64,000 nt of DNA from a virus (Duplodnaviria; Caudoviricetes), in the IMG/VR virus record IMGVR_UViG_2939020026_000003, positions 32,001-96,000 of that record; one strand, given 5' to 3'. Of the stretch, positions 1 through 32,618 are shown in pieces. Within the stretch, counting starts at the first letter, position 1. Every line of letters begins with the position of its first letter. The notes beneath the pieces were generated by a model that was not told the DNA's origin, searched no databases, and saw only the letters and a program-made list of their open reading frames with translations. The translations under genes were made by a program, and so were the position numbers.

Positions 1-1
1 C

Positions 2-67
2 CAGTTCGCTCTGGCGCTGCTGGCCCCGTGGCGATCCAGCGCATTCAGCTTCAACGTCTACAGGTGA
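2..67 (+). CDS. C-terminal end of a probable head-tail connector (partial, window edge)
   Basis: Frame reads QFALALLAPWRSSAFSFNVYR*, stops 3 nt before the next phage gene; function inferred from position only. Confidence 0.45.
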   Translation, partial: QFALALLAPWRSSAFSFNVYR

Positions 68-70
68 GCC

Positions 71-430
71 ATGGGCATTCGAGAAGAAATCCAGGCTGAC
101 ATGGCCGAGGCCTTCGACACTGACTTGGCAGATGCGGTGAAGACGTTCAGCGGTGGCATCACGCTGCCCGGCACAGTTGACCCGGTCACAGAGGCATCTA
201 CTCCAGGTGTGGTCGTTGCGTACAGCGGGCGAGGGGTTTTCGCCGACTACCGAATCGACCTGATCGATGGTGAAAGCATCAAGGCCACCGACCAGCAGTT
301 GATTGCCCTCACGAATGAGGTGATTGGCGGAGTTCCGCAGGCAGGCCACAAGATCAACGGTTTTGACGTGATCAACGTCCAGAAGGACCCGGCCGACTGC
401 ATCTATCAAATCCAACTGAGGCAAATCTGA
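71..430 (+). CDS. Phage head-closure / head-tail adaptor protein
   Basis: 119 aa, C-terminal DPA...QLR pattern, directly before the gp10-like gene. Confidence 0.7.
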   Translation: MGIREEIQADMAEAFDTDLADAVKTFSGGITLPGTVDPVTEASTPGVVVAYSGRGVFADYRIDLIDGESIKATDQQLIALTNEVIGGVPQAGHKINGFDVINVQKDPADCIYQIQLRQI

Positions 431-810
431 TGGCCGGATGGAGCACGCCCCCCACAGCATTCATCGCCCAGATTGAAGGCGATATGACCAAGCAGTTGAG
501 AATCATCGCAATGGCGCTCCTGGGTGAGATTATCAGCCGCTCCCCGGTAGACACCGGCAGGTTTCGAGGAAACACAACGGTCACGATTGGCTCGCCAGTG
601 TTCTCAAACAGCCAAACTCTGGACCCGACCGGAGCAGCCACGATCAGCAAGGGTGCTTCGGTTCTGGCTGGCCTCAAGCCTTTTTCGATCATCTACATCC
701 AGAATAATTTGGTTTACGCCGAAAAATTAGAGAATGGCCACTCCAAGCAGGCACCGTCCGGCGTCTTCGGGCTCGCCTTCGCTGGCGTGGCAGCGGCGTA
801 TGCATCATGA
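430..810 (+). CDS. HK97 gp10-family tail-completion protein
   Basis: SPVDTGRFR and NNLVYAEKLENGHSKQAP motifs. Confidence 0.9.
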   Translation: MAGWSTPPTAFIAQIEGDMTKQLRIIAMALLGEIISRSPVDTGRFRGNTTVTIGSPVFSNSQTLDPTGAATISKGASVLAGLKPFSIIYIQNNLVYAEKLENGHSKQAPSGVFGLAFAGVAAAYAS

Positions 811-1229
811 CCTACGAGCAGATCCGCCAAGCCATCACGGCGCGCATGGTGGCGTTCACAGGTATCGAGCAGGAGCGCATTTTTTACCCGAACGCTCAGT
901 ACCCCGCTCAGAACCAGGACAGTTCGGGCGTGTTCAAACCACCTGCAGACGGCCTCTGGTGCCGCCTGAACATACAGCACGCCACCGCCTTCATGGCAGG
1001 TATGGCCGACCAGCCCTACACCCGCAAGCCCGGCATCATCGTTGTGCAGTGTTTCGCACGGCTACGCACCGGTATGCGCGGCCTGAATGAACTGGCCGAC
1101 GCACTGGAAGCGCACTTTGCTTACTGGACTGAAGGCGACCTTGAGTGCATCGAGGCCAGCCAGGTCGACGCAGGCGAGTACGAAGGCTTCTATCAGATCA
1201 ACGTGAATATCCGGTTCCGCGCCGGTTGA
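807..1229 (+). CDS. Tail terminator-like protein
   Basis: 140 aa, ATGA overlap with gp10, canonical position before the tail tube gene. Confidence 0.75.
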   Translation: MTYEQIRQAITARMVAFTGIEQERIFYPNAQYPAQNQDSSGVFKPPADGLWCRLNIQHATAFMAGMADQPYTRKPGIIVVQCFARLRTGMRGLNELADALEAHFAYWTEGDLECIEASQVDAGEYEGFYQINVNIRFRAG

Positions 1230-1237
1230 GAGGAATT

Positions 1238-2095
1238 ATGCAAAGTCATAACTACGTGCCAAACGTATCTGGCTGGAAGCTTGACAAAGTAACCGGTGAA
1301 TTTGAAATCAACTCGGCCAAGATTTCTGTCGGCAGCCTGCCTGAGCAGCCTCAGATGATTACCGTTACAGCTGGCGAATGGGCGGCGAGCGATCTTCCCG
1401 CTAGCGCGATCGAACACTACGCCTTCATCGGCGCAGAGATATTCAAGATCCCCGCCGAGTATCGTGAAAGTGCGCAGCTCACGACTCAGGATGAGTCATA
1501 CGATCCAGGCTTCGCTGATATCCGCACCACATTGACCTACCAGCGCCCTGAGACTGCCGACGAGGCAAAATCGCGCGCCAGTGCGGCCAGACTTCCTGAA
1601 TACTCGATCAAGAAGCAAGGTGACACGCTCACATTTCTCTATGATGGCGTGCCCCGAATCGTGCTGGGCAAACTCGATAAGCCCGACCTGCCTTTTGCCG
1701 TTGAAGGCGATCAGGTCTTCCTGACCCAGGCGTTCATCGACGCTGGCAAGCTTTCCCCAGTATGGGGTGTGCGGACGACCACCAACGCGGCAGGTCAGAC
1801 AGTGCTTGCTGGCGTTGGCGCTGGCCTGGGTTGTATGTGCGAAGGCGGCTACACCGGCACTCCGGACGATAAGGCGGAAAAGGCTGAGGTGAAGATCGAC
1901 TGCACAGTTGACGCCTCGAAGGCTCTGGATCAAATCAGCAAGCTGATCAGCACCACCGAGCTGGCCCAGTCGATCGAGAGCTTAAAAGTCAGGATCGAGC
2001 ATGAGCACTCAAGCCGAGTCTGTGCTGACGATACGCCTTCTTGCCGAATATCTGCGGTAGAAGCTGGCCTGAACAGCCTCCGCGCCAAACAGTAA
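1238..2095 (+). CDS. Moron protein made of tail-tip (J/DUF1983-like) motifs in permuted order
   Basis: ATG 1238 after GAGAGGA; five motifs resemble the J-like protein at 10737-13916; followed by a terminator. Confidence 0.75.
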   Translation: MQSHNYVPNVSGWKLDKVTGEFEINSAKISVGSLPEQPQMITVTAGEWAASDLPASAIEHYAFIGAEIFKIPAEYRESAQLTTQDESYDPGFADIRTTLTYQRPETADEAKSRASAARLPEYSIKKQGDTLTFLYDGVPRIVLGKLDKPDLPFAVEGDQVFLTQAFIDAGKLSPVWGVRTTTNAAGQTVLAGVGAGLGCMCEGGYTGTPDDKAEKAEVKIDCTVDASKALDQISKLISTTELAQSIESLKVRIEHEHSSRVCADDTPSCRISAVEAGLNSLRAKQ

Positions 2096-2113
2096 CAGTC
2101 AAGCAATATCGCC

Positions 2114-2138
2114 AACCCCGCCTTGAGCGGGTTTTTTT
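2114..2138 (+). terminator. Intrinsic terminator
   Basis: CCCGC-cttga-GCGGG followed by T7. Confidence 0.75.
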
Positions 2139-2161
2139 ATGCCCGCCGAAAGGAGACTCTC

Positions 2162-3322
2162 ATGTCGTCAGGCGCCAAAGTAGTAAGCCACATCATCAAG
2201 GAGGTGACGCCCGGCGTTACCCCCACCGGCACCTGGGATACGCTGCGCCTGACCGGTAACGCGCTGACCCCGACTGTCAACACTGAAGTCAGTGACGAGA
2301 TCACCGACACCCGACTGAGCCAAGGCTCGGTGGCCACCAGCATCGATATCGGCGGCGATCTGTCGGCCGAGTTCTCGTTCGGCTCGTTCGACCAGCTTCT
2401 GGAGGCTGCTTTCTACGGCGTCTGGACGAACGACGTGCTGCGTGTGGGCGATACTCGCAACACCTTCAGCATCGCCAAGGGTTACAACGACATCGGCGTC
2501 TACGGCGTGTTCAAGGGCGCTCACGTGTCCACCTTCGCTCTGGAGATTCCGGAAGAAGGCAAAGTCACCGCCACGTTCAACATGGCGTGCCTGGACTACA
2601 CCGACAGCGAGACGCCGATTGTCGTGACGCCGAACGCGCCGACCACCACGCCGTTCCTGTCGAACAACAACGTAGGCACGATTCTGGTGAATGGTCAGTC
2701 GCTGGAAGGCGTGGCCTGCGTCTCGGCCATGACCATCAATCTGGACAACAGCCTGCAAACCCAGCGCTGCTTGGGTTCGGATCGACTTGGGCCTGGTGCC
2801 CACATCGCCACCGAAGCTGCCATCACCGGCAGCATCACGCTGGCATGGTCCAAGCGCGCGTGGCAGATCTGGAAGAACACCTTCACCCGCCTGCCGATCG
2901 CGGTCGAGTTCCCCATCACCGACTCGCTGGGCAACAAGTACACGTTCAGCTTCCCGGCTGTAGAAGTGGACGGCGAGCTGCCCAACGGCGGTAAGCGTGA
3001 CCTGATCCAGATCGAGCTGAATTACACCGTGGCCAAGCAGAGCCCGACCATTACCCGCGTTTCGGCTGCGGCAGTAACTGGCGTTTCCACCGCACCAAGC
3101 ACAGCATCAGTGGCGGTAGGCGCAACTCGACAACTGAGCGCGACAGTGACACCCGCTTCGGCCAACCAGGCAGTGACCTGGTCGAGCGCGACACCTGGTG
3201 TTGCGACCGTCAGCAGCTCAGGCCTGGTCACCGGCGTTTCTGCTGGCACCGCTGTTGTTACGGCCACCAGCACAGCCGACGGCAGCAAGACCGGCTCGAC
3301 CACTGTCACCGTTACTGCATAA
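2162..3322 (+). CDS. Major tail tube protein with C-terminal Ig-like (Big_2-type) domain
   Basis: ATG 2162 after AGGAGA; tail-tube core then VTWSSATPGVATVSSSGLVTGVSAGTAVVTATS. Confidence 0.9.
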   Translation: MSSGAKVVSHIIKEVTPGVTPTGTWDTLRLTGNALTPTVNTEVSDEITDTRLSQGSVATSIDIGGDLSAEFSFGSFDQLLEAAFYGVWTNDVLRVGDTRNTFSIAKGYNDIGVYGVFKGAHVSTFALEIPEEGKVTATFNMACLDYTDSETPIVVTPNAPTTTPFLSNNNVGTILVNGQSLEGVACVSAMTINLDNSLQTQRCLGSDRLGPGAHIATEAAITGSITLAWSKRAWQIWKNTFTRLPIAVEFPITDSLGNKYTFSFPAVEVDGELPNGGKRDLIQIELNYTVAKQSPTITRVSAAAVTGVSTAPSTASVAVGATRQLSATVTPASANQAVTWSSATPGVATVSSSGLVTGVSAGTAVVTATSTADGSKTGSTTVTVTA

Positions 3323-3401
3323 CCGATTCAATCCTTTTGACCGCTCCGGTGATAACGCCTGCCGGGGCGGTCCTTTTATGGCGTGGCGTTGAGGTTGCAT
3401 C

Positions 3402-3875
3402 ATGGCTCTCAAGCTGAAGAACAAAGAAGTGGTCGACAACGCTGCGAAGTGGTTCGATTTTGACGCAGACACCAAAGTGCTCATCGCTCCAGTCGATAGC
3501 CCTGAATACCAGGTAGCCATTGAGCGCATGCAGCGACGAATCTGGCGCAATGACGCTGTGTTCGCCGAAGGCAGCGTGGGCGTGCTGGAGGGCGAGGTAA
3601 GCGAGAAGCGCAACCACTGCATGGTTCTTGCGAAATACATCGTCAAAGACTGGCAGGGCGCTCAGGATCATGACGGCAACGCGCTGCCTTACGACGAGGC
3701 GATTGGCGTGTCCATGCTCGAAAGCGACCTTGAGTTCTTCCTGTTCGTAATCCGCTCTGCCGAGTCCTTCGCCAAGCAGGTTCAGGAAGAGCGCAAGGAG
3801 ACGCTGGAAAAGCCGTCGCCCGCTTCCAGTGGGAAAGCGAGTGGGCAGGGCCGGAAGCCGCAAAGCGCAAGCTGA
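3402..3875 (+). CDS. Tail assembly chaperone (gpG-like)
   Basis: Between tail tube and tape measure; IVKDWQG motif; slippery GGAAAAG near the 3' end. Confidence 0.85.
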   Translation: MALKLKNKEVVDNAAKWFDFDADTKVLIAPVDSPEYQVAIERMQRRIWRNDAVFAEGSVGVLEGEVSEKRNHCMVLAKYIVKDWQGAQDHDGNALPYDEAIGVSMLESDLEFFLFVIRSAESFAKQVQEERKETLEKPSPASSGKASGQGRKPQSAS

Positions 3876-4144
3876 TATTTGGTAAGTTCGGCATGGATGT
3901 GCCGGACGAGCCCCCGCAAGATCCAATCACGGCGTACCTGCTGAACACTTTCCGCAACGTATGCAGGGGGCGGCGCTACATCTCAGGCATGAGCGGCGTT
4001 TTCCCAATGCCGCTGTCGGCACGCGAGATCACTGACTGGATCGAATCGCATCCGTCACCGATCCCCCGTGAGGAGATAGACCTTGTTCTCTTCGAGCTGG
4101 ATAGTCTGCTCATGGAGCGGGATGAGGATGAGGACGACCAATAA
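3809..4144 (+). CDS. Tail assembly chaperone extension (gpT part of gpGT, -1 frame)
   Basis: The -1 frame is open from the slippery site through KAVARFQWESEWAG...MDVPDEPP to 4144. Confidence 0.8.
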   Translation, partial: KAVARFQWESEWAGPEAAKRKLIFGKFGMDVPDEPPQDPITAYLLNTFRNVCRGRRYISGMSGVFPMPLSAREITDWIESHPSPIPREEIDLVLFELDSLLMERDEDEDDQ

Positions 4145-4211
4145 CAGGACCGATTAGGAGATCAGATAACTATGTCGCCCAACAAACCCAATGATCACTG
4201 CTTGATCGCTG

Positions 4212-4472
4212 TTACGTGTGATATTTCCTCCACGGAATCTGTGACGGGTGAAGCCCTGCAAGAAGCTTGGCCAGATCTTGTCGACCGTGATACCGGAAGG
4301 TTCCGCGAGAGTCTTGCGACGCCAGAACAACGGGAACTCCAGGAAATTGCGGCTGGAACGATTCGCGGACTGGCTCTGCGGCAGTAGATGACGATGTGTA
4401 CTGATGTTTCACGATCACTACGGCGAAAGTGACGCCGCGATGCGTGATCAGGGCTCCTTCGAAGCTACTCAT
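4212..4472 (-). CDS. Hypothetical moron protein (86 aa)
   Basis: ATG 4472 preceded by GGAG; antisense to the late operon. Confidence 0.75.
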   Translation of the reverse strand: MSSFEGALITHRGVTFAVVIVKHQYTSSSTAAEPVRESFQPQFPGVPVVLASQDSRGTFRYHGRQDLAKLLAGLHPSQIPWRKYHT

Positions 4473-4616
4473 ATATTCTCCATCCAATTGATCGCCGAAA
4501 TAGGCAGGATTAATTCCTTTTACCCGGCAAAAGGCTATCATCAGTGACGGAGCGTGGGGTACTGAGCTTTCATACAGCCCTACAAGCGATTTTCATCGAT
4601 CAGGAGTAGATAGCTT

Positions 4617-4979
4617 ATGAAACGAAATTGGGACCTGATCAGGCTGATCCTGATTGCTGTTGAGGAAAACGAAGACCACAACAAGACGATAACAGACAAG
4701 GATATTCCTGGGCACGATCCAGCTTTAGTCGCATATCAGATGAGGCTGCTGAAAGAGGCTGGCTTGGTTGATGCGCGCTGCGTGGCATTCACAAGCGAGC
4801 CTGGCGAATGTTTCGTTTTTTCCCTAACATGGGAAGGTCATGAGTTCCTCGACCAGATCAGGTCGAAAACCCTTTGGAACAAGACTGTAGGCGTCATCCA
4901 GGAGAAAGGGTTGGACCTGTCCTTCAGCACAATCAAGGCTGCCGCTGCAGCTGTCGCAAAAAGCCTCATAAACTTCTGA
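4617..4979 (+). CDS. DUF2513/YjcQ-like winged-helix moron protein
   Basis: MKRNWDLIRLIL and LTWEGHEFLD motifs; AGGAG upstream. Confidence 0.85.
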   Translation: MKRNWDLIRLILIAVEENEDHNKTITDKDIPGHDPALVAYQMRLLKEAGLVDARCVAFTSEPGECFVFSLTWEGHEFLDQIRSKTLWNKTVGVIQEKGLDLSFSTIKAAAAAVAKSLINF

Positions 4980-5042
4980 GTGGTCGTTCGCCGTTGCGCT
5001 CGATGATGGTAGATTGCCCCTATCAACTAGATAGAGGCACCT

Positions 5043-5402
5043 ATGCGAAAATTAATTGTTATGACCGCCCTGTCGCAGGCAGTCCTTGTTTCGCCTATCG
5101 CATCTGCTGATGCGGCAACAAACGAAGCGGCCGCGCTTTTAGCTTTCAATGCGGCCGAGCTTTGCCATACTCATGCCGGGTTATACAGCACTGCGTCCGG
5201 CGCAATTCGCGATGGACATACTGAAGAGGCTGTCCGTGAGGCGGGAGCTGTTCTATCTGGATCAGAGGCGGACAAAGTGATAAAGGCAGCGGTTGCGGAC
5301 ACAAAGTCAGGAAAGGAAGACGCAGATAGGTTTTACGATCAATGCATGAAGAAAGCCCGACAGAAAGTCTACGCCACAATTGAAGGTGGAAAGATATCTT
5401 AA
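5043..5402 (+). CDS. Hypothetical exported moron protein
   Basis: Signal-peptide-like N-terminus, two Cys, GAGG upstream, terminator after. Confidence 0.7.
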   Translation: MRKLIVMTALSQAVLVSPIASADAATNEAAALLAFNAAELCHTHAGLYSTASGAIRDGHTEEAVREAGAVLSGSEADKVIKAAVADTKSGKEDADRFYDQCMKKARQKVYATIEGGKIS

Positions 5403-5420
5403 GGTAAAGACCCATAACGG

Positions 5421-10338: not shown

Positions 10339-10737
10339 ATGCGCAATCGAGACTGGACCACACGTCTGCACGAAGTAATCAAGGCTGCCCAAGGGCGGCC
10401 TTTTTTGTGGGGCGAATTTGACTGTTGTCTGTTCGCCGCCGACTGCTCGAGCGCCGTGTGCGGTGTGGATCCCGCAGAGCAATACCGGGGCACCTACAAA
10501 ACCGAGGCTGGTGCCAAACGTGCGCTGAAGAAGCGTCACGGCAGCCTGGAAGCTGCATGGGATGCGTGCTTTGTAAGGGTAGCTGTTCCGTTCATCCAGC
10601 GCGGCGATGTCGTGATGTACGAAGCGCCGACAGGTCGAAGCATGGCTGTGTACTGGGCCGGTGATTATTGGGCGACGACCGATGACGGCGTTGCTCGCGT
10701 TGTGTGCGAGCCGCTTGCGGTGTGGAGGGTTGAGTAA
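10339..10737 (+). CDS. NlpC/P60-like tail tip assembly protein
   Basis: PFLWGEFDCCLFAAD and QRGDVV motifs. Confidence 0.8.
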   Translation: MRNRDWTTRLHEVIKAAQGRPFLWGEFDCCLFAADCSSAVCGVDPAEQYRGTYKTEAGAKRALKKRHGSLEAAWDACFVRVAVPFIQRGDVVMYEAPTGRSMAVYWAGDYWATTDDGVARVVCEPLAVWRVE

Positions 10738-13700
10738 TGCCAAGTGGCGTAAAGAAAATTGCTCAGGTCGCCGTCGGTGCTGTCGTTGGCTTCGCTCAAG
10801 GCGGCCCATGGGGCGCTGTTGCTGGTGCAGCACTCGCTTTTTATGCATCTGAGCAACAGGAAAAGCTCAACACCAAATCCCCACTCCGCGACAACGAGCC
10901 CTCCGCACAGACCGTGCGCTCATCGAAAGCCCCAGTCCGTTTCATCCTTGGCCGTGTTTCCACTGGTGGCGTGCTGGTCTGGGCTCAGGAGCAATCCGGG
11001 ACCGCAACCGAGGGCGAGCTGCTGCACCTTGTCTACGTGCTGTGTGAAGGCGCGATCGATGGCTTGGAGAATATTTACTTGGGAGAGGAAGAAATCGGCT
11101 CGTTCGGTGAGTTCGCCAGCTATGAGCTGATCGTCAATCCGACAGAGGTGAACGCATTCCTCAAGGCCAACTGCCCAGATTGGAAGGACAGCCAGATCGG
11201 GCGTGGCCTGTCGTTCGTGCGCATAACCCTGAAGTACAGCGCCGAGAAGTTCCCTTCTGGCATCCCTGACACCCGCTTTGTGGTCCGTGGCCGGAATGAC
11301 ATTTACGACCCGCGCACCGGCAACAACATCTACACCGCCAATACCGCACTGCACATCCTCTGGTTTCTGCGTAACCGCTGCAACGTGCCGGACGACGAGA
11401 TCATTTTCGAGACATTCGCCAGTGCAGCAAACGTCTGCGATGAAACGCTGACCAATGCCGACGGTTCTGTCAGCCAGCGCTACCGTACCTCCTGCGTGAT
11501 TGGTGCTGACGAGCAGCGCCCGGGCGTGCTGCAGAAGCTGGAAGCGTCATGCGCGGGCAAGCTGATCCGCGTCGGCGGCCGCTGGATGCTCCAGGCCGGG
11601 GCCTACTACGGCCCGTATGACTTCGAAATCACCGAAGACATGATCATCGGCACTGTATCCGGCAGCACCGAGTCGACCAACGATTCCGCAATCAACACGG
11701 TGCGCGGCACGTTCATTGATCCTGAGCAGTCGTGGACCGAGACGGATTACCCAGAGGTCAGCGTTTCTGAATGGATCCTTGAGGACGGTGGCGAAGCTGC
11801 AGAGACGATGACGTTCTCGTATGTGACCGACGCTTATCAGCCGCAGCGCCTAGCGAACATCTCCTTGCGCCAGCGCCGGGCTGGCGGGGCAATCAGCCTG
11901 CCGATGAACTTCTCGGGCTACAACTGCCGGCCTGGCCGCGTCGTGCGCGTGAACCTGCCATCACTGAACATCCTTGGCGAGTTCATCGTCTCTGATTGGT
12001 CGATGGGTGACAACGAAGGCTGCACGGTTCAGGTCAAGCAATACGAGGCGGCAATCTTCGATGACGCCGTGGGCCAGCCTTACAACCCGCTGGGATTCAT
12101 CAGCCTGCCAAGCGGCGGACTTGGGTCGCCCACCGGGCTTGCGTGGGCAGCTGGCGATGCTGCCGAGGTGGTGCAGGGCGTGCTGTCTTGGGTTCCACCG
12201 CAGGGTATCGTCACCTCGTATGTGGTAACGGTCCGCCAAGGAGGCGGTGTCGCGCAGTCACGCTCGGTGCCCGCGACGGCCAACACGCTTGCCATCAACG
12301 GATTGGCGTCGGGCACATACACAATGAGTGTGGCTGCTCTGGGGCCTATGGCTCGTTCCGGAGAGTCCTCTATATCGGTGAGCATTCAGGGGCCGCCTAT
12401 ACCTGAATCCTGCGTCGTGCAGTCCTCGATTGACAGCATTGTGCTGATCCCGCAGAACCCGAACCACGGCTTGAATGGAGGGACCTACGAGTACTTTTTC
12501 AGCACCAACCCAAATTCAACATCGGGCACGGCGCAGTACCTGGGGCAGGGCCTGTCGTTCACTCACAACGATTTGGCGTTTTACACAAACTATTACTACT
12601 TCATCCGCTCGACCAACGCATACGGGAAGAGCGCCTTCCTTTATGTGCCCGCGGCGACTTCAAACGATGTTTCGGCTTATCTGGCTGCCCTCGGTGGGAA
12701 GATCGGCAAGACCGAGCTTGCGCAGAACCTGCTTTCAGAGATTGAGCTGATCAGTGGCGACGGACCTGGATCAGTCAATGAGCGCCTTGGAGAACTGAAG
12801 GCCGAGATCGGAGAAATCACCGACGCTCTGGTCTACGTGCCCACCGATGCCTACATGCGCGACAACACTGTGCGCGTGGGTGACAACCTTTGGACGGCCA
12901 TTGCGGCAGTGCCCGCGAAGGCCGACGGGTCCAACGGTCCGCCGAACCCGGCGTACTGGGTGAACTCTGGGCAATCGATCCGGGCAGCCAACGCCGCGGT
13001 GGCGCAGATTACGAAGAACACCGCCGATATCGAGACGGTGGACGGCAAGACCAGCGTTACCGCCAGCCAGCTCCAGGCGGTGCAGGCTCAATACCGCGCT
13101 GACAGCGGGGAGGGTGATCTGCTCGACGCAATTCGTGGCTGGGATAGCGCGGCCAGCGCAGCACAGGAAGTGAAGGTCAGGGCCGAAGAGGACTTTGCTC
13201 AGGCGCAGCGCACGACGACTCTTCAGGCGCGGGTAGGCACCAACGAAGCAAGGATTACTACAGTTGAAACGACTACCGCCACGGATAGAGAGACGACGGC
13301 TCAGCAGATATCTACGCTTACAGCGTCTGTAGGCACGAACCAGGCGGCCATTCAGTCCGAGGCTACCGCTAGGGCTAACGCAGACGGCGCGCTGACCACG
13401 CGAGTAGATGGGATTCAGTCGACGGCAAACGGCGCATCTGCTCAAGCTCAAACAGCAAGCACTGCCGTATCTGGGCTGAACGGAAAGGTATCCGCGCTCA
13501 CAACCATAAAAACGTCCACTACCGTGGGCGGAAGAACGGTTATGGCTGGCCTCGCTATCGGCGTTGAAGGACAGCAGCAGGAGTCGCAAATTCTGGCGTA
13601 TGCCCAGCGCTTCGCAATTCTTGATGAGTCGAGCGGTACCCTAATTTTTCCGTTCGTTGTTCAGGGAGGGAAGGTAATTATTGATTCGGCCATTATTGGG

Positions 13701-13916
13701 AATGCATCCATTGGTGTTGCCCAGCTTACGCAGAGCCTTCAGTCCAGCAATTACATCGCAGGCCAGCAAGGACTAAAGATCAATTTCTTGACGGGAGAAT
13801 TCGAGTTCAATAGTGCAACTGGTGACGGCGGCCGACAAACCATAAACAACGCCGGGGGCAAGGTCTTTGACCAAAACGGCGTGAAGCGCTACCAGTGGGG
13901 GAACCTGGCTGTATGA
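10737..13916 (+). CDS. Tail tip / central fibre protein (gpJ-like; FN3, coiled-coil, DUF1983-like C-terminus)
   Basis: 1059 aa; IYDPRTG, INTVRGTFIDP, FN3-like segments, PFVVQGGKVII and LQSSNY motifs. Confidence 0.93.
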   Translation: MPSGVKKIAQVAVGAVVGFAQGGPWGAVAGAALAFYASEQQEKLNTKSPLRDNEPSAQTVRSSKAPVRFILGRVSTGGVLVWAQEQSGTATEGELLHLVYVLCEGAIDGLENIYLGEEEIGSFGEFASYELIVNPTEVNAFLKANCPDWKDSQIGRGLSFVRITLKYSAEKFPSGIPDTRFVVRGRNDIYDPRTGNNIYTANTALHILWFLRNRCNVPDDEIIFETFASAANVCDETLTNADGSVSQRYRTSCVIGADEQRPGVLQKLEASCAGKLIRVGGRWMLQAGAYYGPYDFEITEDMIIGTVSGSTESTNDSAINTVRGTFIDPEQSWTETDYPEVSVSEWILEDGGEAAETMTFSYVTDAYQPQRLANISLRQRRAGGAISLPMNFSGYNCRPGRVVRVNLPSLNILGEFIVSDWSMGDNEGCTVQVKQYEAAIFDDAVGQPYNPLGFISLPSGGLGSPTGLAWAAGDAAEVVQGVLSWVPPQGIVTSYVVTVRQGGGVAQSRSVPATANTLAINGLASGTYTMSVAALGPMARSGESSISVSIQGPPIPESCVVQSSIDSIVLIPQNPNHGLNGGTYEYFFSTNPNSTSGTAQYLGQGLSFTHNDLAFYTNYYYFIRSTNAYGKSAFLYVPAATSNDVSAYLAALGGKIGKTELAQNLLSEIELISGDGPGSVNERLGELKAEIGEITDALVYVPTDAYMRDNTVRVGDNLWTAIAAVPAKADGSNGPPNPAYWVNSGQSIRAANAAVAQITKNTADIETVDGKTSVTASQLQAVQAQYRADSGEGDLLDAIRGWDSAASAAQEVKVRAEEDFAQAQRTTTLQARVGTNEARITTVETTTATDRETTAQQISTLTASVGTNQAAIQSEATARANADGALTTRVDGIQSTANGASAQAQTASTAVSGLNGKVSALTTIKTSTTVGGRTVMAGLAIGVEGQQQESQILAYAQRFAILDESSGTLIFPFVVQGGKVIIDSAIIGNASIGVAQLTQSLQSSNYIAGQQGLKINFLTGEFEFNSATGDGGRQTINNAGGKVFDQNGVKRYQWGNLAV

Positions 13917-31102: not shown

Positions 31103-32618
31103 AAAAGTGTTTGTATTTTTATTCCCTTATTATACCATTTCCCCCTTCCGATTATGTTCGTCTAGGGCGGTATTTCCTTCCCGCCTTTTTAAACAGATTG
31201 TAAGCCCCGTTGGCAGTCTTTCTACTAACGATTGCATTCACTACCGTGTACATTCCGAGCGTACTCGCTCCACACATCATTTCAATTCTGCTGAGTAGTG
31301 TAGAAGCAAAGCTTAGGTAAGGCATTTTCAAGCCCATCACGCGGACTGATTCCCCTAACAACGTCAACGCGTATTTCGTGCACGAAATATGTACGATGAA
31401 GAAAACAGCTCCTGCTACTACAATTTCAATCATTTTCTGAGTGACGATATTCGCGCTTTGTCCAACTGCTGCGCCCAAACCGTTTGTTGCATATTTCATG
31501 ACGCTTTGGTCAAGTGCTGCTGCTATTTCCCAGTTGGAGATGTAGAAGAACACAATCAGCGGTCCAAACACGACAGTGCTGAAAAGGATTCCCAAGAGGG
31601 TTGAGCAGATTCTCATGAGATTGTCCCTATCGTTCAGCTTACAGAATGCAAGGATTGCGAAGGGCATGGTCACTATCAAAATCAATAGGTAGAAAATGTT
31701 CAGTATATAAAGCAAGAAAAAGGGACCAGTCATGATCGAAATGACAAGGAATTTGAACATCGTAGCGAGAATGTAGCCTTTCAATGCCCACGCGAAAAAG
31801 AATGAAGCTAAGCCGCCTGTGATGGCTCCGACGATTTGCATGAAATTTGGCGTCTTGCTGAGTTTCTTCTGGTTCTTCTTTATCTTGTCTTTCGACACGC
31901 CAGCGTTCTCTTCTGCTTTTGCCTGATCACTCATGACCCTTTCTTTTTTCTTGTCGCCGTAAGCAGTCGCTGCGTAGCCAATCAGTTTCGTGGAGGCAGC
32001 GAGGTACATGATTTGAGTCATGGTTTCAGCTATCTGTGAACCGTATTTCTGCATGCAGGTAACTGGATACTTGGTCGTTTTCACGCAAGCGTCCAGCTCG
32101 ACCTTCGGGTTTTCCAACCCCACGCCGATGGCTTCGTAGAAGTCGGCTTGCTGAGCAGAAGCAGTAGCGTTCGTGCTGTACTGCTTCTGCATGATTGCTG
32201 AGCTGTCAGCAAGGCTTGGAGCACCATCAGAATTTGGGATAAGGTTCAGTTCACGAACCCTTTCGCCCATGTTCAAGCTGTTGTAAGTCGTACCATCGCT
32301 GTAGCCATGTCTTCTCGCCCAGTCATCGATAATGTAGGTCCCTACGGCTTGGGTTTGGATCGTCTGCATGGGGGAGGATGAACCAAACTGACTCTGTGCT
32401 GTGGCAGAGAAATTCGCCTCGTCGGACATGCTCGGCATGGTCCATACGAGATTGATGAACCCTTTCTGATAAGCCTCGACCTGCCTTTTGAATAAGTCCT
32501 GATTGAACACTGAGGCATGAAACTGAGTGTTGATTTTGAGACGTGTATTATAGTATTCGTCAATCAATGCATTCGTTTTGTCGTGAATCTGAGTTTCATA
32601 CTGGTCTGTCTGACCTAA

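Follow-up and report, generated by a model that had tools for sequence, protein, structure and literature searches.

A mobile late-operon cassette of Pseudomonas prophages matches the central tail fiber's modules in reversed order

We analyzed a 64,000-nucleotide stretch of viral DNA (Duplodnaviria; Caudoviricetes), hereafter the window, which covers positions 32001 to 96000 of a 122,913-bp IMG/VR provirus record (IMGVR_UViG_2939020026_000003). Positions 1238 to 2095 of the window encode a 285-amino-acid (aa) protein, here called X, between the tail terminator and tail tube genes. X matches four modules of the J-like tail tip protein encoded farther downstream, arranged in exactly the opposite order. 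The gene is a dispensable, horizontally mobile late-operon cassette, and its reversed order is kept in a family found across hundreds of Pseudomonas prophages. Lambdoid central-fiber modules normally keep a single set order and form the end of a tip protein of about 1,000 aa; here they are reversed, small, free-standing, and under selection. We tentatively favor the reading that X is a late-expressed, probably trimeric auxiliary mini-fiber with a conserved N terminus and a mosaic C terminus.

X matches four modules of the J central fiber in reversed order

The relation between X and J was assessed by profile comparison with hhalign, in which 85 X-family members were aligned with the C-terminal 420 residues of 121 J homologs. 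Family residues 1 to 147 matched J residues 1001 to 1058 (module D; E = 4e-13, probability 97.9), residues 152 to 173 matched J 972 to 993 (module C; E = 2.6e-7), residues 169 to 220 matched J 915 to 961 (module B; E = 1.2e-8), and residues 223 to 285 matched J 642 to 698 (module A; E = 2.2e-5, probability 76.5). The order in J is A, a coiled coil, B, C, and D, and the order in X is D-C-B-A, a full reversal. By the shaft and prism layout of the lambda and F2-pyocin structures (PMC11101478 and PMC13455828), module A is assigned to the alpha-helical shaft and modules B, C, and D to the beta-sheet prism of the central straight fiber. The same four modules, a helix at the start of the shaft and three beta-prism hairpins, are shared by lambda gpJ (8iyk and 8xcj), by PyoF10 (25vf), and by the Pfam family PF09327. 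Correspondingly, module B of X matches lambda J chains 8xcj and 8iyk, and residues 636 to 1004 of the J-like protein match the F2-pyocin fiber 25vf (E = 8.5e-64).

Beyond module order, X differs from J in its size (285 versus 1,059 aa), in an extra insert within module D, and in being dispensable and mobile. It also lacks the J hub and the fibronectin type III (FNIII)/Ig domains, and it has no Pfam match besides PF09327. The Pseudomonas J proteins, PyoF10, and X are alike in having no receptor-binding domain after module D (PMC13455828). Other small proteins that consist of fiber modules only, namely, 9ze4_N (429 aa), P0341 (376 aa), and the phrog_496 tail fiber, resemble X in this respect but have the order A-B-C-D.

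An earlier note on this DNA, made from the letters alone, had described five segments of X, numbered by their order along J, as resembling parts of that protein. BLASTP of X against J aligned segment 5 (X 1 to 27 with J 1001 to 1027; E = 7e-6), segment 3 (170 to 197 with 916 to 943; E = 0.002), and segment 4 (151 to 167 with 971 to 987; E = 0.18) and reported no match for segments 1 and 2. When J was shuffled 1,000 times, the observed pair score was reached by none of the shuffles for segments 5, 4, and 3, by 6 for segment 1 (which thus lies beyond 994 of the 1,000), and by 529 for segment 2, which was also weak in the profile comparison (E = 0.014, probability 3). The resemblance is therefore significant for segments 5, 4, 3, and 1 and is at chance level for segment 2, and the order reported for X, 5-4-3-1-2, was confirmed. 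What had been taken for unrelated spacers includes residues 120 to 147, which match the last 28 residues of J, and residues 33 to 119, which form the insert within module D.

PF09327 scores 41.8 bits on X (cutoff, 22), with the match confined to residues 1 to 30 on profile positions 101 to 129 (E = 1.1e-10). No colinear B-C-D match across the 139 positions of this profile was found; homologs in four other proviruses match its pieces 94 to 134, 69 to 95, and 17 to 64, in that order. Two further accounts of the arrangement were rejected. A second C-like element before B in J would make C and B colinear, but the long hidden Markov model (HMM) stretches in J have B as their sole anchor. X as a detached C-terminal extension of J was set aside because module D matches end about 30 aa before the C terminus of J whatever the length of the protein (120 J homologs, BLASTP).

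A large family keeps the reversed order

X matches phrog_18217, a family labeled as of unknown function, with residues 1 to 258 on profile positions 3 to 188 of 216; the proteins of phage Medea1, of the Cruim01 type, and of other members match it with E values from 9e-73 to 6e-21. A word-indexed search returned 123 homologs of 164 to 356 aa (E ≤ 1e-3), the named ones nearly all from Pseudomonas. A full HMM search returned 794 representative clusters at E ≤ 1e-3, with 181 at E ≤ 1e-10 and 55 at E ≤ 1e-30, and IMG/VR contained 143 relatives. The family order is kept colinear in 118 of 138 newly fetched representatives; the remaining 20 are either J-order A-B-C-D proteins or tandem D repeats, among them P0329, with five D modules in tandem. 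This suggests that D is a repeatable fiber unit and that the modules can be stacked. Three to five copies of D (SxNYxxGxxGWxL..G..E.N) were seen in P0329, P0371, P0358, and P0362, and they are consecutive in the first two.

In the cultured Pseudomonas syringae phages Aurca01, Cruim01, and Medea1, the slot used in the window is likewise occupied by a homolog, the accessions being XAI71399.1, XAI71314.1, and QVW29087.1. Those of Cruim01 and Medea1 are D-C-B-A, and that of Aurca01 is shorter and lacks module C. Short family members have no insert domain, X of the window being a long form, and alternative C termini occur across the family. At the other end, L061 to L063, L066, L080, and P0075 have a coiled-coil stretch added N-terminally to the D motif (about 100 nucleotides [nt] 5' of the X match in the L loci), with the ..AR..AD.AL..RI.. 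repeat typical of J shafts.

Homologs are named in databases as hypothetical protein, DUF1983, "tail tip fiber protein," or "host specificity protein J"; entries such as "DUF1983 domain-containing protein," "phage tail tip fiber protein," and "host specificity protein J" (for example, Medea1 QVW29087.1) within phrog_18217 are proteins of the same kind as X. Since members lack any J hub domain, the J names are misleading, and the family is known in databases just as an unnamed or misnamed entry. PADLOC and NCBIfam gave no match for X. The modules and the J fiber are already known; a limited full-text search of the literature found no description of the family, of its reversed order, or of its mobility between two slots.

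X had been described as built from the phage's own tail-tip motifs. In 37 X/J pairs from the same record (window included), identity at 73 motif positions was 0.421 to the phage's own J and 0.417 to other J proteins; the observed own-J value was reached in 1,294 of 5,000 permutations. Residues 1 to 27 of X are up to 67% identical to foreign J proteins and 52% identical to its own. Because own-J and foreign-J identity are the same, neither gene conversion nor covariation is seen, and the motifs belong to the J fiber domain in general. X thus does not derive from its own phage's J in particular, and in this old family the reversal is a constant feature. A J of the PF09327 type accompanies X in 36 of 42 records.

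Predicted fold of X

An AlphaFold2 monomer model built on an 85-row alignment has a mean predicted local distance difference test score (pLDDT) of 76.4. It contains short hairpins in module D, an alpha/beta insert with pLDDT above 90, strands at 122 to 143, hairpins at 153 to 162 and 176 to 195, a disordered linker at 196 to 222, and a single long helix at 226 to 284; folded alone, the insert domain reaches a pLDDT of 85.8. Foldseek returned no match to the full model at E ≤ 0.001 in the Protein Data Bank or BFVD. In a wide VIA-align search, the long helix dominated the result and the hits were generic coiled coils at Z scores of about 6. The insert domain alone gave a best Z score of 5.2 (MinE, root mean square deviation of 3.3 over 58 residues), with no clear fold match, and the ESM Atlas gave no usable match for X. 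The assertion that a scrambled set of J segments cannot fold as J finds no support here: hairpins are predicted for D, C, and B and a helix for A, and tandem D repeats elsewhere suggest stackable modules.

X is under purifying selection but is less constrained than its neighbors

The ratio of nonsynonymous to synonymous substitution rates (dN/dS) of X was 0.23 to 0.62 over 11 pairs of relatives. Along the gene it was 0.14 (module D, residues 1 to 32), 0.29 (insert), 0.33, 0.46 (C plus B, where dS is low), 0.35, and 0.38 (helix A). For the same relatives, the terminator gene gave 0.02 to 0.05 and the tube gene 0.09 to 0.11. By these values, X is functional and under purifying selection, with no sign of neutral decay, and is far less tightly constrained than the genes on either side. 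The N-terminal end is conserved and the distal end is variable (0.14 versus 0.38 at residues 223 to 285, with mosaic C termini), as in fibers.

These results bear on the possibility that X resembles J by chance or is a functionless, decaying remnant of a rearranged J fragment. Segment 2 is at chance level and the guanine-plus-cytosine (GC) content of the gene is not distinctive (0.562 versus 0.582 for the tape measure protein gene), as such a reading would allow. It is refuted, and we give it practically no weight, by the scores of segments 5, 4, and 3, which no shuffle reached; by hhalign E values down to 4e-13; by hundreds of intact homologs; and by the dN/dS values, lowest in module D.

X is a dispensable, mobile cassette found in two genomic slots

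Contigs of three sequencing runs from a related prophage, with flanks about 91% identical, pass from window position 1229 to 2117 through 19 other letters, so that the 887-bp cassette is missing but the hairpin that follows it is retained. A related terminator gene was found at 29 IMG/VR loci, and in 27 of these the junction of terminator and tube genes could be assessed: 17 have a gap of 67 to 71 bp and no X, 5 have X, and 5 have other content. The other content consists of minus-strand proteins of 185 to 204 aa with a hydrophobic N terminus or, in one case, of a 248-aa minus-strand gene, which we take to be NUMOD4/HNH-like. Such minus-strand occupants lie at L094 3410 to 4000, L104 3393 to 3950, L112 3395 to 4009, and L111 3462 to 4208, and three of these are 185 to 204 aa long. 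In PSA-2T, a cultured phage, the terminator is 86% identical, the gap between terminator and tube genes is 64 bp, and X is absent. Records without X still carry a J of the PF09327 type.

A moron is an extra gene that separates two genes which are direct neighbors in related phages, and it often brings along a promoter and a terminator. The genes flanking X are adjacent in relatives, and consensus scans found no promoter of its own. The description of X as an accessory, moron-like gene nevertheless stands on its absence from most junctions, from the three-run contigs, and from PSA-2T and on its presence in a second slot. Among 80 IMG/VR loci carrying X, 20 have it between terminator and tube genes, 45 upstream of a holin gene, and 15 in positions that were left unclassified. 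In the holin slot, X lies directly 5' of the holin gene (phrog_126, or phrog_2658, labeled "hol-like chemotaxis") and 2 to 4 kb 5' of the large terminase gene, often with an integrase gene and phrog_3412 1 to 2 kb 5' of X. DNA homology between the window and the holin-slot locus L005 runs from 1238, exactly the ATG, to 1964 at 88% identity; with relatives in general it starts at the ATG and ends variably between 1681 and 1964.

In each of the 65 classified loci, every neighboring gene that could be classified shares the orientation of X. In 18 of the 45 holin-slot loci, the X ATG is preceded at 22 to 37 nt by a conserved terminator hairpin, which seems to resemble the terminator before the first late gene in lambdoid phages. 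This hairpin has 10 pairs and a T-run, lies at 4955 to 4979 in L011, and has counterparts in 22 of the 80 loci; it may be the late-operon terminator. Consensus scans found no plus-strand sigma-70-like promoter site in window positions 1 to 4000, other promoter types being outside the scan, and none in L011 4300 to 6000, around a holin-slot copy, with the same kind of scan. Given the co-orientation with late genes, the upstream hairpin, and the lack of a promoter-like site, X is most likely produced at a late stage of the lytic cycle and not in the lysogen.

The location and distribution of X bear on whether it could be a transient, nonvirion scaffold or chaperone that pairs with nascent J segments and keeps J soluble until it trimerizes. 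J is reportedly insoluble when expressed alone (PMC11364771), X is expected to be expressed late beside the tail genes in the window, and X co-occurs with PF09327-type J in most X-bearing records. Against this, most related tails do without X, X does not covary with its own J, the holin slot is distant from the tail genes, and an optional insert and a mosaic C terminus are unexpected for a chaperone. We regard such a role as very improbable.

X may be an auxiliary trimeric mini-fiber

Lambda Stf, T5 pb1, and T4 fibritin are dispensable accessory trimeric fibers whose attachment end is conserved and whose distal end varies. The combination of fiber modules, a conserved N terminus, and a mosaic C terminus in the X family is best matched by an auxiliary fiber of this general kind, although X has no known homology to Stf, pb1, or fibritin or to the side fibers of PyoF13. 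The latter are optional trimeric fibers added on the J shaft to a working tail (PMC13455828). The J and F2-pyocin fibers are built of trimeric shafts and prisms (PMC13455828 and PMC11101478), and X may by analogy form a homotrimer, with the beta-prism modules D, C, and B in its N-terminal part, a shaft-like helix A in its C-terminal part, and, in long forms, an insert of about 90 aa. It would be made late, alongside the tail proteins. Nucleation of the trimer, or docking of X on a J-type tail, would fall to the invariant N-terminal module, and the variable C terminus would make contact with a target that itself varies, most likely the surface of the host. X would then serve as an optional adsorption or host-range accessory.

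Several observations weigh against this reading. The holin-slot location and the dispensability of X fit an accessory late function just as well: 45 of 80 loci place the gene 5' of a holin gene and about 20 kb from J, at a classic site for nonstructural morons. Phages with 86%-identical terminators form plaques without X, and X does not covary with its own J. The idea that X supplies a receptor-binding tip missing from J was rejected, as phages without X have the same kind of J. In the structural model, the predicted template modeling score was just 0.39. As weaker evidence, no longer relative with a fused receptor-binding or enzymatic domain turned up at E ≤ 1e-5. Virion proteomics was not found in the available descriptions of Aurca01, Cruim01, and Medea1, and "mass spectrometry" occurs 0 times in the available text of the Medea1 paper.

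Whichever function it serves, the family offers a natural test of how much rearrangement of their layers trimeric beta-prism fibers can tolerate, a point of use for fiber engineering and structure prediction. As an optional, mobile late cassette in accessory-gene hot spots, it is a candidate host-range accessory or a candidate counter-defense against tail-targeting immunity. The presence of X in Aurca01, Cruim01, and Medea1 makes the question directly testable in cultured phages.

Relation of X to tail-targeting immunity

The background claim that some defenses target the central tail fiber agrees with published work on Tai and Ati proteins (phi80 orf63 and orf64; He et al. 2024, PMC11364771). 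According to that report, tail assembly is blocked by Tai proteins from prophages, phage-inducible chromosomal islands, and P4-like satellites; phages escape through mutations in the C-terminal part of J, where single substitutions are enough. Tai genes lie mostly 5' of the packaging module, and the phi80 counter-defense gene atiEcA is a late-operon gene in the same region; AtiSalB is reported to bind its Tai partner directly. Like X, these are accessory genes of lambdoid prophages for which the J C terminus is relevant, and Ati genes, like X, are co-oriented with late genes (PMC11364771). They differ in that Tai genes are divergently transcribed and expressed in lysogens and in that AtiEcA has 76 aa (PMC11364771), and they show no sequence or profile similarity to X.

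X could accordingly act as an Ati-like late decoy, its free fiber modules soaking up Tai-like proteins that bind unassembled J C termini and so protecting the phage's own tail assembly. We judge this possible but unlikely. Immunity of the Tai type and its late-operon counter-defense do exist (PMC11364771), and all four fiber modules are present in X. The Ati-like position, 5' of the holin and terminase genes, is found in 45 of the 80 family loci, the window copy lying instead in the tail module. X is accessory and 3 to 10 times less constrained than the flanking tail genes, and in other proviruses the slot between terminator and tube genes holds divergent membrane-type genes. Conversely, hhalign found no homology to AtiEcA (probability, 0.4%) or TaiEcA (0.5%), and PADLOC gave no match. 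No partner gene is evident beside X in the window, although AtiSalB reportedly binds its Tai partner. With identity to its own J of only 0.42 at the 73 motif positions, the same as to foreign J proteins, X would be a weak mimic, given that single J substitutions suffice to escape Tai. The broader proposal that the whole family mimics unassembled fiber against Tai-like immunity, the reversal displaying every module while barring entry into the J trimer, strikes us as doubtful. If true, X would be a mobile counter-defense cassette that any J-type phage could acquire.

The opposite role, in which X caps or co-assembles with the J of lambdoid phages that co-infect or superinfect the cell and thereby poisons the tips of their tails in a dominant-negative, Tai-like manner, appears improbable. 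X and many Pseudomonas J proteins have trimerizing modules in common, with the high identity of residues 1 to 27 to some foreign J proteins noted above; the gene is prophage-borne and mobile; and interference with tail assembly is an established strategy (PMC11364771). The mean identity of X to foreign J proteins is, on the other hand, uniform at 0.417. X is co-directional with late genes in all 65 classified loci, with no plus-strand promoter-like site, and the hairpin upstream of it in the holin slot implies that X is probably absent from lysogens and made only alongside its own phage's J, which would then be poisoned too. Expression from the prophage, probably required of a blocker of competing phages as the earlier note proposed, is thus not supported. 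An auxiliary fiber, the reading we favor, would be made at that same late stage.

Genomic surroundings of X

The features discussed here are listed in Table 1. Profile matches of both neighbors agree with the placement of X between the tail terminator and tail tube genes, and X has, as was claimed, its own ribosome-binding site: GAGG lies 4 nt 5' of the ATG and overlaps the stop codon of the terminator gene. X begins 8 bp after the terminator gene, so it is likely cotranscribed with the tail genes, and it ends 66 bp before the tube gene. The terminator-like hairpin and T-run reported after X are present. They are not specific to the gene, since relatives without X retain the hairpin, which appears to be a backbone element and not part of the cassette. 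Locus L012 shares window positions 2091 to 2135 3' of its own X copy, and L011 has a separate downstream hairpin. In the window, head-closure and Neck1 genes lie 5' of the terminator gene, and the tube gene is followed by genes for a chaperone, the tape measure protein, the distal tail protein, the J-like protein, and a 512-aa tail fiber.

Table 1. Coordinates of X, its modules, and related features of the window
Feature	Position	Strand	Basis and remarks
Cassette open reading frame X	1238-2095	+	285 aa; phrog_18217 member, E 5.9e-37
Module D, first part (aa 1-32)	1238-1333	+	Motif MQSxNYVPxVSGWKL..GEFEIN; most conserved part of X
Insert domain (aa 33-119, inside module D)	1334-1594	+	Alpha/beta, optional; skipped in hhalign match to J
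Module D, second part (aa 120-147)	1595-1678	+	Three short strands; hhalign to last 28 residues of J
Module C (aa 152-173)	1691-1756	+	Motif PFxVEGDQVFLxQAFID; hhalign J 972-993
Module B (aa 169-220), plus variable linker	1742-1897	+	Motif WGVRxxxNxxGQxVxAGxGxGL; hhalign J 915-961
Module A (aa 223-285)	1904-2092	+	Long helix, like start of J alpha-helical shaft; hhalign J 642-698
J-like tip protein	10737-13916	+	1,059 aa; phrog_31 E 1e-145; PF09327 at residues 904-1038
J module A	12660-12830	+	hhalign mapping
J module B	13479-13619	+	hhalign mapping
J module C	13650-13715	+	hhalign mapping
J module D	13737-13910	+	hhalign mapping
Tail terminator gene, upstream slot border	807-1229	+	PF13554 E 3e-6; phrog_179 E 3e-37
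Ribosome-binding site GAGG and spacer of X	1230-1237	+	Read from the sequence
Hairpin and T7 run, terminator-like, 5' of tube gene	2117-2138	+	5-bp GC stem; hairpin 2117-2131
Tail tube gene with C-terminal Ig-like domain, downstream slot border	2162-3322	+	PF18906 E 1e-45; Big_2 E 5e-15; phrog_290

Other parts of the tail region also vary among relatives. The C-terminal Big_2 Ig-like domain of the tube protein (window 3058 to 3332) can be dispensed with: in contigs of relatives, 27 other letters connect 3057 to 3333, and related tube genes encode 306 aa, compared with 386 aa in the window. A cluster of small open reading frames at 4172 to 5402, between the tail chaperone and tape measure genes, looks like a second hot spot for accessory genes. 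Relatives skip positions 5017 to 5420, and 4617 to 4979 within the cluster matches phrog_585/DUF2513, a family that also occurs directly 5' of the X homolog in L053.

A gene annotated as "glutamate 5-kinase" in Aurca01 (L002 2663 to 3025) and Cruim01 (L003 2699 to 3061) has been discussed as an auxiliary metabolic gene (PMC11256456). Its position matches that of the window's head-closure gene at 71 to 430 (phrog_161, E = 4.7e-24), two genes before the terminator gene, and by this position, rather than by comparison of the proteins, the label looks like a misannotation. Finally, the overall GC content of the window is 0.506, compared with 0.56 to 0.62 for the phage structural genes, so a large part of it is not this tail module.

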